Origin: Escherichia coli
Lineage (GTDB): Bacteria > Pseudomonadota > Gammaproteobacteria > Enterobacterales > Enterobacteriaceae
Assembly (NCBI RefSeq): GCF_003334355.1
Contig: NZ_QOWP01000003.1
Length of the DNA stretch: 64,000 nucleotides
Reading direction: 5' to 3' (one strand)
The notes under the pieces were generated by a model. That model searched no databases, was not told the DNA's origin, and saw only the letters and a program-made list of their open reading frames with translations. A program made the position numbers and the translations under genes. Below are positions 10,617 to 10,662 of the stretch, piece after piece; position 1 is the stretch's first letter; the number at the start of each line of letters is the position of its first letter.

Positions 10617-10662
10617 GGCTCCTCCTTTCATTTTGTCCCATGTGTTGGGAGGGGCCTTTTTT
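10617..10662 (+). terminator. Hairpin plus T-run in cadB-cadA intergenic region (possible attenuator or RNA-stability element)
   Basis: GGCTCCTCC ... GGAGGGGCC (9-bp stem with one G-U, about 22-nt loop) followed by TTTTTT, ending about 17 nt before cadA ATG. Confidence 0.4.

Follow-up and report, generated by a model that had tools for sequence, protein, structure and literature searches.

A hairpin sequence followed by a run of six T residues lies in the spacer between cadB and cadA (Table 1), in a textbook acid-resistance operon whose study has been centred on transcriptional control by CadC. The cadBA operon has to yield CadA, a cytosolic decamer, in far greater amounts than the membrane antiporter CadB, although cadA is the distal gene. 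The DNA analysed here, a single 64-kb stretch (the window), has the gene order tRNA-Phe, integrase remnant, cadC, cadB, cadA, dtpC and the lysine–tRNA ligase gene. We identified the genes with a 501-nt query around the hairpin, which matched many complete E. coli genomes at 100% identity; in the RefSeq annotation of these genomes the flanking genes are cadB, encoding the cadaverine/lysine antiporter, and cadA, encoding lysine decarboxylase, and no feature is annotated in the spacer between them. The 15 nt upstream of cadA appear as CCTGGAGATATGACT in the HRIBO table. The cadB-cadA junction had no match in 221 of 5426 complete E. coli genomes. Further upstream, at about 6650–7300, the annotation of the matching K-12 locus (L084) places the tRNA-Phe gene and the frameshifted integrase remnant just ahead of cadC, a combination typical of a place beside the cad locus where a genomic island was once inserted. 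At the other end, the terminator after cadA stops about 16 nt before the dtpC ATG (12885), so near that almost no room would be left there for a promoter of dtpC's own.

Table 1. Features of the cadB-cadA region, in window coordinates
Feature	Position	Strand	Basis
cadB open reading frame	9265–10599	+	ORF list; annotated cadB in identical E. coli genomes
cadB stop codon (TAA)	10597–10599	+	ORF and annotation
Spacer, predicted A/U-rich single strand ending in UUUCC (10610–10614; complementary to the cadA SD)	10600–10614	+	Sequence and minimum free energy fold
Hairpin 5′ arm, pyrimidine-rich GAGGCUCCUCCU; conserved core 10618–10626	10615–10626	+	Fold and covariation
Large hairpin loop; inner helix of other genera decayed in Escherichia	10627–10646	+	Per-species folds and alignments
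Hairpin 3′ arm, purine-rich GGGAGGGGCCUU; conserved core 10647–10655	10647–10658	+	Fold and covariation
T6 run; U-run directly abutting the stem in E. coli only	10657–10662	+	Comparison of 59 elements
Best computed AzuR pairing site (AzuCR nt 81–114)	10663–10697	+	RNAduplex scan, −32.6 kcal/mol
cadA SD region GGAGA (GGAG 10667–10670), 8 nt upstream of the ATG	10667–10671	+	Invariant GGA columns
cadA start codon (ATG)	10679–10681	+	Translation MNVIAILNH...; RefSeq cadA start
Canonical intrinsic terminator after cadA, used as a comparison	12838–12869	+	11-bp stem, 4-nt loop, T-run

The sequence-only reading of this DNA had described a 9-bp stem with one G-U pair, a loop of about 22 nt and a TTTTTT tract ending about 17 nt before the cadA ATG. 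This geometry was recovered: GGCTCCTCC (10617–10625) pairs with GGAGGGGCC (10648–10656) over 9 bp including one G-U pair (T10620-G10653), the loop is 22 nt long (10626–10647), and the T-run that follows the stem ends 16 nt before the ATG. Folding of the RNA from 10597 to 10685 lengthened the stem to 12 bp, with the two arms of Table 1 paired throughout, and gave in addition a weak 3-bp helix inside the loop and an outer helix in which the UUUCC of the spacer pairs with the GGAGA of the cadA Shine-Dalgarno (SD) region. The minimum free energy of this fold was −27.7 kcal/mol, compared with −18.4 ± 2.95 for shuffled sequences (z = −3.14), and none of 200 shuffles was as stable. A scan of the window for comparable T-tailed stems (stem of at least 9 bp with at most one G-U and at least 6 G-C pairs, loop of at most 25 nt, T-rich tail) returned four on the + strand and two on the − strand, with about none in shuffled sequences. 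We also considered a pH-dependent pyrimidine triplex of the flanks on the purine arm, which was dropped by eye; the flanks are off the required CCCUCCCC register.

To follow the hairpin in other species, we used the CadB protein as a query and collected 80 loci, one genome per species. The SD is preceded, at a distance of 7–13 nt, by a strong hairpin in 55 distinct cadB-cadA spacers, in Escherichia, Klebsiella, Raoultella, Kluyvera, Buttiauxella, Trabulsiella and Salmonella diarizonae among others, as well as in Serratia, Yersinia ruckeri, Edwardsiella, Hafnia, Izhakiella, Vibrio and Aeromonas. Alignment of the raw intergenic regions with MAFFT followed by RNAalifold missed the outer stem, the 5′ arms being out of register, and this problem was met in two ways. 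In an ungapped count, each sequence was anchored at the G-C pair that matches E. coli 10618–10655; nine successive pairs were each 94–100% paired, with the pair types CG, UA, UG and GC. A covariance model of the stem found one copy in each of 59 cadBA loci and a single match in the window, and in the model alignment the nine core pairs were 93.9% paired, with changes on both sides in seven of the nine pairs (34 cells). On none of the five measures was the alignment matched by any of 500 shuffles; with the partner slid by 1–3 columns, 60–82% of the cells paired and the covariation score, 0.365 in register, was at most 0.20. The model alignment is fitted to the structure of the model and hence biased towards it, but the ungapped count agrees independently. 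The alignment contains 79 G-U cells, and the pairing was 93.9% on the sense strand versus 79.6% on the antisense strand, which indicates that the selected form of the stem is the mRNA.

Within Escherichia, G10617A in E. albertii is accompanied by the compensatory C10656T. In E. coli, C10622T leaves a G-U pair in place in one strain, and G10654A gives a C-A mismatch in another. In 4847 of the 5205 complete E. coli genomes with the locus, 82 nt are identical, and each genome has one copy. A repeat or mobile element was rejected as an explanation, on account of this single copy per genome and the single model match in the window. That the inverted repeat arose by chance and has no function is hardly credible, given its stability relative to shuffles, its covariation as against the shuffled and slid controls, and the retention of the stem from Escherichia to Vibrio and Aeromonas. 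Thus, the hairpin is an RNA structure conserved across enteric bacteria, Vibrio and Aeromonas.

In most genera the structure has a second tier: a conserved CACCUG is present, and on the 3′ arm there is stacked a further, inner helix of the form GUCAC/GUGAC. The inner helix shows covariation of its own (GCCAC/GUGGC, GCUAU/AUAGC and GCCGC/GCGGU in loci L004–L034 and most non-Escherichia loci) and aligns to 10627–10646. The large loop of Escherichia is explained by the loss of this helix there. Being conserved in sequence within an internal loop, CACCUG may be a place where a protein or an RNA binds.

The position of the stem is fixed with respect to one of its two neighbours. From the stem anchor to the cadA ATG the distance is 23 nt in most of the 55 sequences (range 21–29), and in E. 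coli the last pair lies about 21 nt before the AUG, whereas between the cadB stop and the stem there are anything from 11 to 79 nt, depending on the locus. These distances show that the hairpin travels with the start of cadA and not with the end of cadB; the constant ATG spacing could partly reflect the scarcity of indels in a short, constrained ribosome-binding region. Longer spacers have extra upstream hairpins besides the conserved cadA-proximal one: in Vibrio, GCUGGCACUACGGUGCCAGC stands about 13 nt after the cadB stop (L074, L075, L079), and in Edwardsiella and Hafnia there is a GUAAUC...GAUUAC hairpin (L043, L047, L051, L057, L080). Five loci with second cadBA-like copies, whose CadA identity is 73–78% (L049, L058, L059, L061, L063), have unrelated, very stable hairpins without U-runs, which the covariance model does not match. 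The hairpins of these paralogs suggest a general need for a strong stem between antiporter and decarboxylase genes.

We then compared the expression of the two genes in published acid-stress RNA-seq and Ribo-seq data for E. coli K-12 (PMC10746267, Table S5). The RNA levels of cadB and cadA were about 1469 and 2322 rpkm at pH 4.4 and about 311 and 534 rpkm at pH 5.8, with mean cadA/cadB ratios of 1.6 and 1.7, respectively; the ratio ranged from 1.1 to 2.0 and exceeded 1 in all six samples, in none of which was the net drop in RNA across the hairpin seen that an attenuator should produce. Footprint densities differed more strongly, with about 481 for cadB and 2176 for cadA at pH 4.4 (cadA/cadB 4.0–5.2 per replicate) and about 183 and 460 at pH 5.8 (2.1–2.9 per replicate). 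The translation efficiency of cadB was 0.34 at pH 4.4 and 0.59 at pH 5.8, and that of cadA about 0.9 at either pH. Accordingly, the ratio of CadA to CadB synthesis in this data set rises from about 2.5 at pH 5.8 to about 4.5 at pH 4.4 because the translation efficiency of cadB falls while that of cadA stays near 0.9.

Could the excess of cadA RNA come from a promoter of its own? The two genes rise several-hundred-fold together under acid induction, and a promoter scan returned no promoter-like site on the + strand from 10500 to 10680, which covers the 3′ end of cadB and the spacer. We therefore rejected an internal cadA promoter; an independent promoter is an unlikely cause of the RNA ratio. 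The ratio could also arise independently of the hairpin, from library bias or from faster decay of the cistron for the membrane protein.

The same data bear on the proposal, made in the sequence-only reading, that the hairpin is a partial terminator or attenuator. Taken as an E. coli-specific device, the stem and U6 would release some polymerases after cadB and lower cadA relative to cadB. The E. coli element does share features with intrinsic terminators, including leaky ones within operons: a G+C-rich stem (12 bp, within the usual 5–14 bp, with 8 G-C pairs in the core of 9–10 bp) is directly abutted by U6. With 15 nt between the cadB stop and the stem, a terminating ribosome would not block the folding of the stem. 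The T6 is also kept within the species, the two inspected variants among the otherwise identical E. coli sequences sparing the run and a T-to-C variant occurring in none. By a d'Aubenton-Carafa-type rule, evaluated with modern energies, the E. coli hairpin scored +10.6, above zero. Every other orthologue, however, scored below zero, and the true cadA terminator, with its 4-nt loop, reached +30. The loop of the cad hairpin is 20–22 nt rather than the usual 3–8 nt, and a terminator scan with loops of 3–8 nt lists the cadA terminator at 12838–12863 but does not call the hairpin. The RNA downstream of the U-tract is not reduced but higher than upstream, the opposite of what an attenuator predicts. 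In the Term-seq tables of Adams et al. 2021, where the operon is not detectably expressed, there is no 3′ end in the spacer or after cadA, the sole cad entry being a bicyclomycin-sensitive site inside cadB.

Comparison across species weighs further against termination. Five or more consecutive U residues occur within 10 nt after the stem in only 3 of the 59 elements, abutting the stem in E. coli only, and 54 of the 55 other sequences that keep the stem have no U-run or an interrupted one. The tails after the stem read, for instance, UUUCUUU in E. albertii, UUUCUAC in Klebsiella, CCACUUU in Salmonella, UCGCAUU in Serratia and CCUCAUUC in Vibrio. Since the U-run is missing from nearly all orthologues that retain the stem, termination can hardly be the conserved function, and the conserved role of the hairpin is most likely post-transcriptional. 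The T6 of E. coli is a recent addition, which may add some termination or merely provide a U-rich single strand upstream of the SD; a modest level of termination might be masked by a higher stability of cadA. Thus, the marginal resemblance to a terminator is real in E. coli, but we consider partial termination there unlikely. More generally, one genome by itself is too thin a basis for annotating an intra-operon hairpin with a T-run as a terminator. Comparison shows here that the stem is conserved and the T-run is not.

A hairpin in this position might instead serve the upstream gene. If the mRNA were cleaved downstream of the stem, the hairpin would block 3′ exonucleases and stabilise the cadB segment, as stable intercistronic hairpins often do (for example, the REP sequence of malEFG and the hairpin of the Rhodobacter puf operon). 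In the non-homologous cadBA-like paralogous loci, too, this gap holds a strong hairpin that lacks a U-run. The spacing that is fixed is nevertheless the one to the cadA start, the cadB stop lying at variable distances; in Vibrio the cadB stop is followed directly by a hairpin distinct from the conserved, cadA-proximal one; and cadB is the less abundant segment of the mRNA. We consider protection of cadB decidedly improbable.

The cadA ribosome-binding site is the other element next to the stem. The right arm of the hairpin is rich in GGAGG and had been taken as a possible alternative SD. This suggestion failed: no ATG, GTG or TTG is found 5–10 nt after GGAGG (10648–10652), the next ATG (10673) being about 20 nt away, and the arm is locked in the stem. 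Two ATGs, at 10640 in the hairpin loop and at 10673 (ATGACTATG), lie upstream of the accepted start in the cadA frame, and the mechanical ORF list begins cadA at 10640 because of the former; neither has an SD at a usable distance.

The small RNA AzuCR represses cadA by pairing near its ribosome-binding site, as shown experimentally (PMC8915982). The target lies in the same leader as the hairpin, and the pairing covers the SD and the start codon, after the T-run. Pairing of AzuR with the hairpin itself was rejected, the best computed duplex (Table 1) beginning right after the T-run and excluding the hairpin. AzuCR is narrowly distributed (PMC8915982), in contrast to the broad distribution of the hairpin. 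At pH 4.4, the acid-stress data (PMC10746267) show strong induction of azuC RNA.

We next weighed whether the hairpin acts as a translational switch that clamps the SD. By bringing UUUCC next to the cadA SD, it would favour a weak anti-SD helix, and translation of cadA would need an opener, for example a ribosome that reaches the end of cadB, a change in temperature or pH, or a factor acting in trans. Both the minimum free energy structure and the ensemble pair GGAGA with UUUCC. In silico, the probability that the SD is unpaired was 0.03–0.05 for the wild type, 0.76 when UUUCC was changed and 0.36 when the 5′ arm was broken. A pyrimidine motif (UUCC, UUCU or UCCAG) stands upstream of the stem in many genera, and in the Enterobacteriaceae just 10–14 nt separate it from the cadB stop. 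The neighbouring SD and start region is, in addition, where the sRNA AzuR acts. In its predicted SD-pyrimidine pairing, held by a hairpin, the arrangement resembles SD-sequestering structures such as coupling helices and the ROSE and fourU thermometers. It differs from them in that the predicted partner varies between genera, in that cadA is well translated under induction and in that there is no Rfam match (none in the spacer at E ≤ 10 for the window, nor at E ≤ 1 for seven loci of other genera). The 5′ flank was the main predicted partner of the SD in 18 of 49 species, other nearby pyrimidines taking its place elsewhere, and the SD is invariant, so that covariation cannot probe the helix. 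A translation efficiency of 0.9 for cadA, against 0.34–0.59 for cadB, implies that the SD is not strongly masked under induction, and with 25–79 nt to the cadB stop, as in Serratia, Edwardsiella and Vibrio, a terminating ribosome is too far away to open the helix. A clamp on the SD is therefore a doubtful explanation, standing about as low as partial termination.

The remaining suggestion of the sequence-only reading, that the CadB:CadA ratio is set by an element for processing or stability, agrees best with the evidence. The covarying stem, its fixed spacing to the cadA ribosome-binding site and the higher level of cadA RNA and translation all point in this direction. Our tentative explanation, to which we give a probability of roughly 0.45, is that the hairpin, as a structure of the cadA leader, shields or arranges the cadA part of the message and helps CadA to exceed CadB. 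The stable G+C-rich stem borders the cadA ribosome-binding site on its 5′ side and belongs to the cadA cistron's leader within the cadBA mRNA. After cleavage or decay of the cadB portion, the hairpin would cap and protect the cadA segment, leaving a short pyrimidine-rich single strand and the SD open to the ribosome; the distal cadA would then gain more mRNA and more translation than the proximal gene for the membrane protein. The A/U-rich segment at 10600–10614 is a possible entry site for an endonuclease. We infer that the hairpin causes the higher level of cadA by blocking decay that depends on the 5′ end.

Stabilising hairpins in intercistronic regions or 5′ leaders are familiar from operons with unequal expression, as in the processing of papBA, the stem-loops of the ompA 5′ UTR and synthetic 5′ hairpins. 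Like these, the cad stem lies immediately upstream of the ribosome-binding site that serves the better-expressed cistron, whose segment is the more abundant, and its structure rather than its sequence is conserved. Features expected of a stabilising hairpin are thus present, namely covariation on the mRNA strand, a fixed position at the edge of the ribosome-binding site and a downstream segment that is more abundant, as judged by abundance only. Unlike them, the cad element lies inside an operon and not at a primary 5′ end, and its processing would have to be supposed. A classical 5′ protective hairpin must sit within a few nucleotides of the 5′ end, and we know of no cleavage site in the cadB-cadA spacer; both points count against a stabilising role, as does the predicted pairing of the SD with UUUCC in E. 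coli, which would repress cadA translation. Monocistronic cadA transcripts have reportedly been noted in older work on cad genes. In the RNase III list of Gordon 2017 there are only low-count cad sites, all of them inside cadB.

On a more elaborate view, the structure, rather than stabilising passively, would act as a regulated switch for the translation or decay of cadA, through which an acid-stress signal tunes CadA:CadB independently of CadC. The signal might be the pH of the cytoplasm, a polyamine such as cadaverine, or the binding of a protein or sRNA; the element would be a structured RNA of the Enterobacterales, Vibrio and Aeromonas, with a two-tier hairpin and, in most genera, the CACCUG internal loop. 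We regard such a switch as improbable.

The hairpin is best filed as an uncatalogued intercistronic leader hairpin, of a familiar type that tunes expression within an operon. A description of it was not found in the literature searched, the older cad papers lying outside that search. As the kind of element is familiar and no surprising mechanism is demonstrated, the gain is incremental; a conserved structure in the cadA leader is nonetheless a concrete and testable candidate for setting the CadA:CadB ratio. The leader also varies at the start codon itself: in Kluyvera, Superficieibacter and the metagenome-assembled genome UBA5654, a tandem 6-nt unit (ATGACTATGACTATG or ATGTCTATG) shifts or duplicates the start of cadA.
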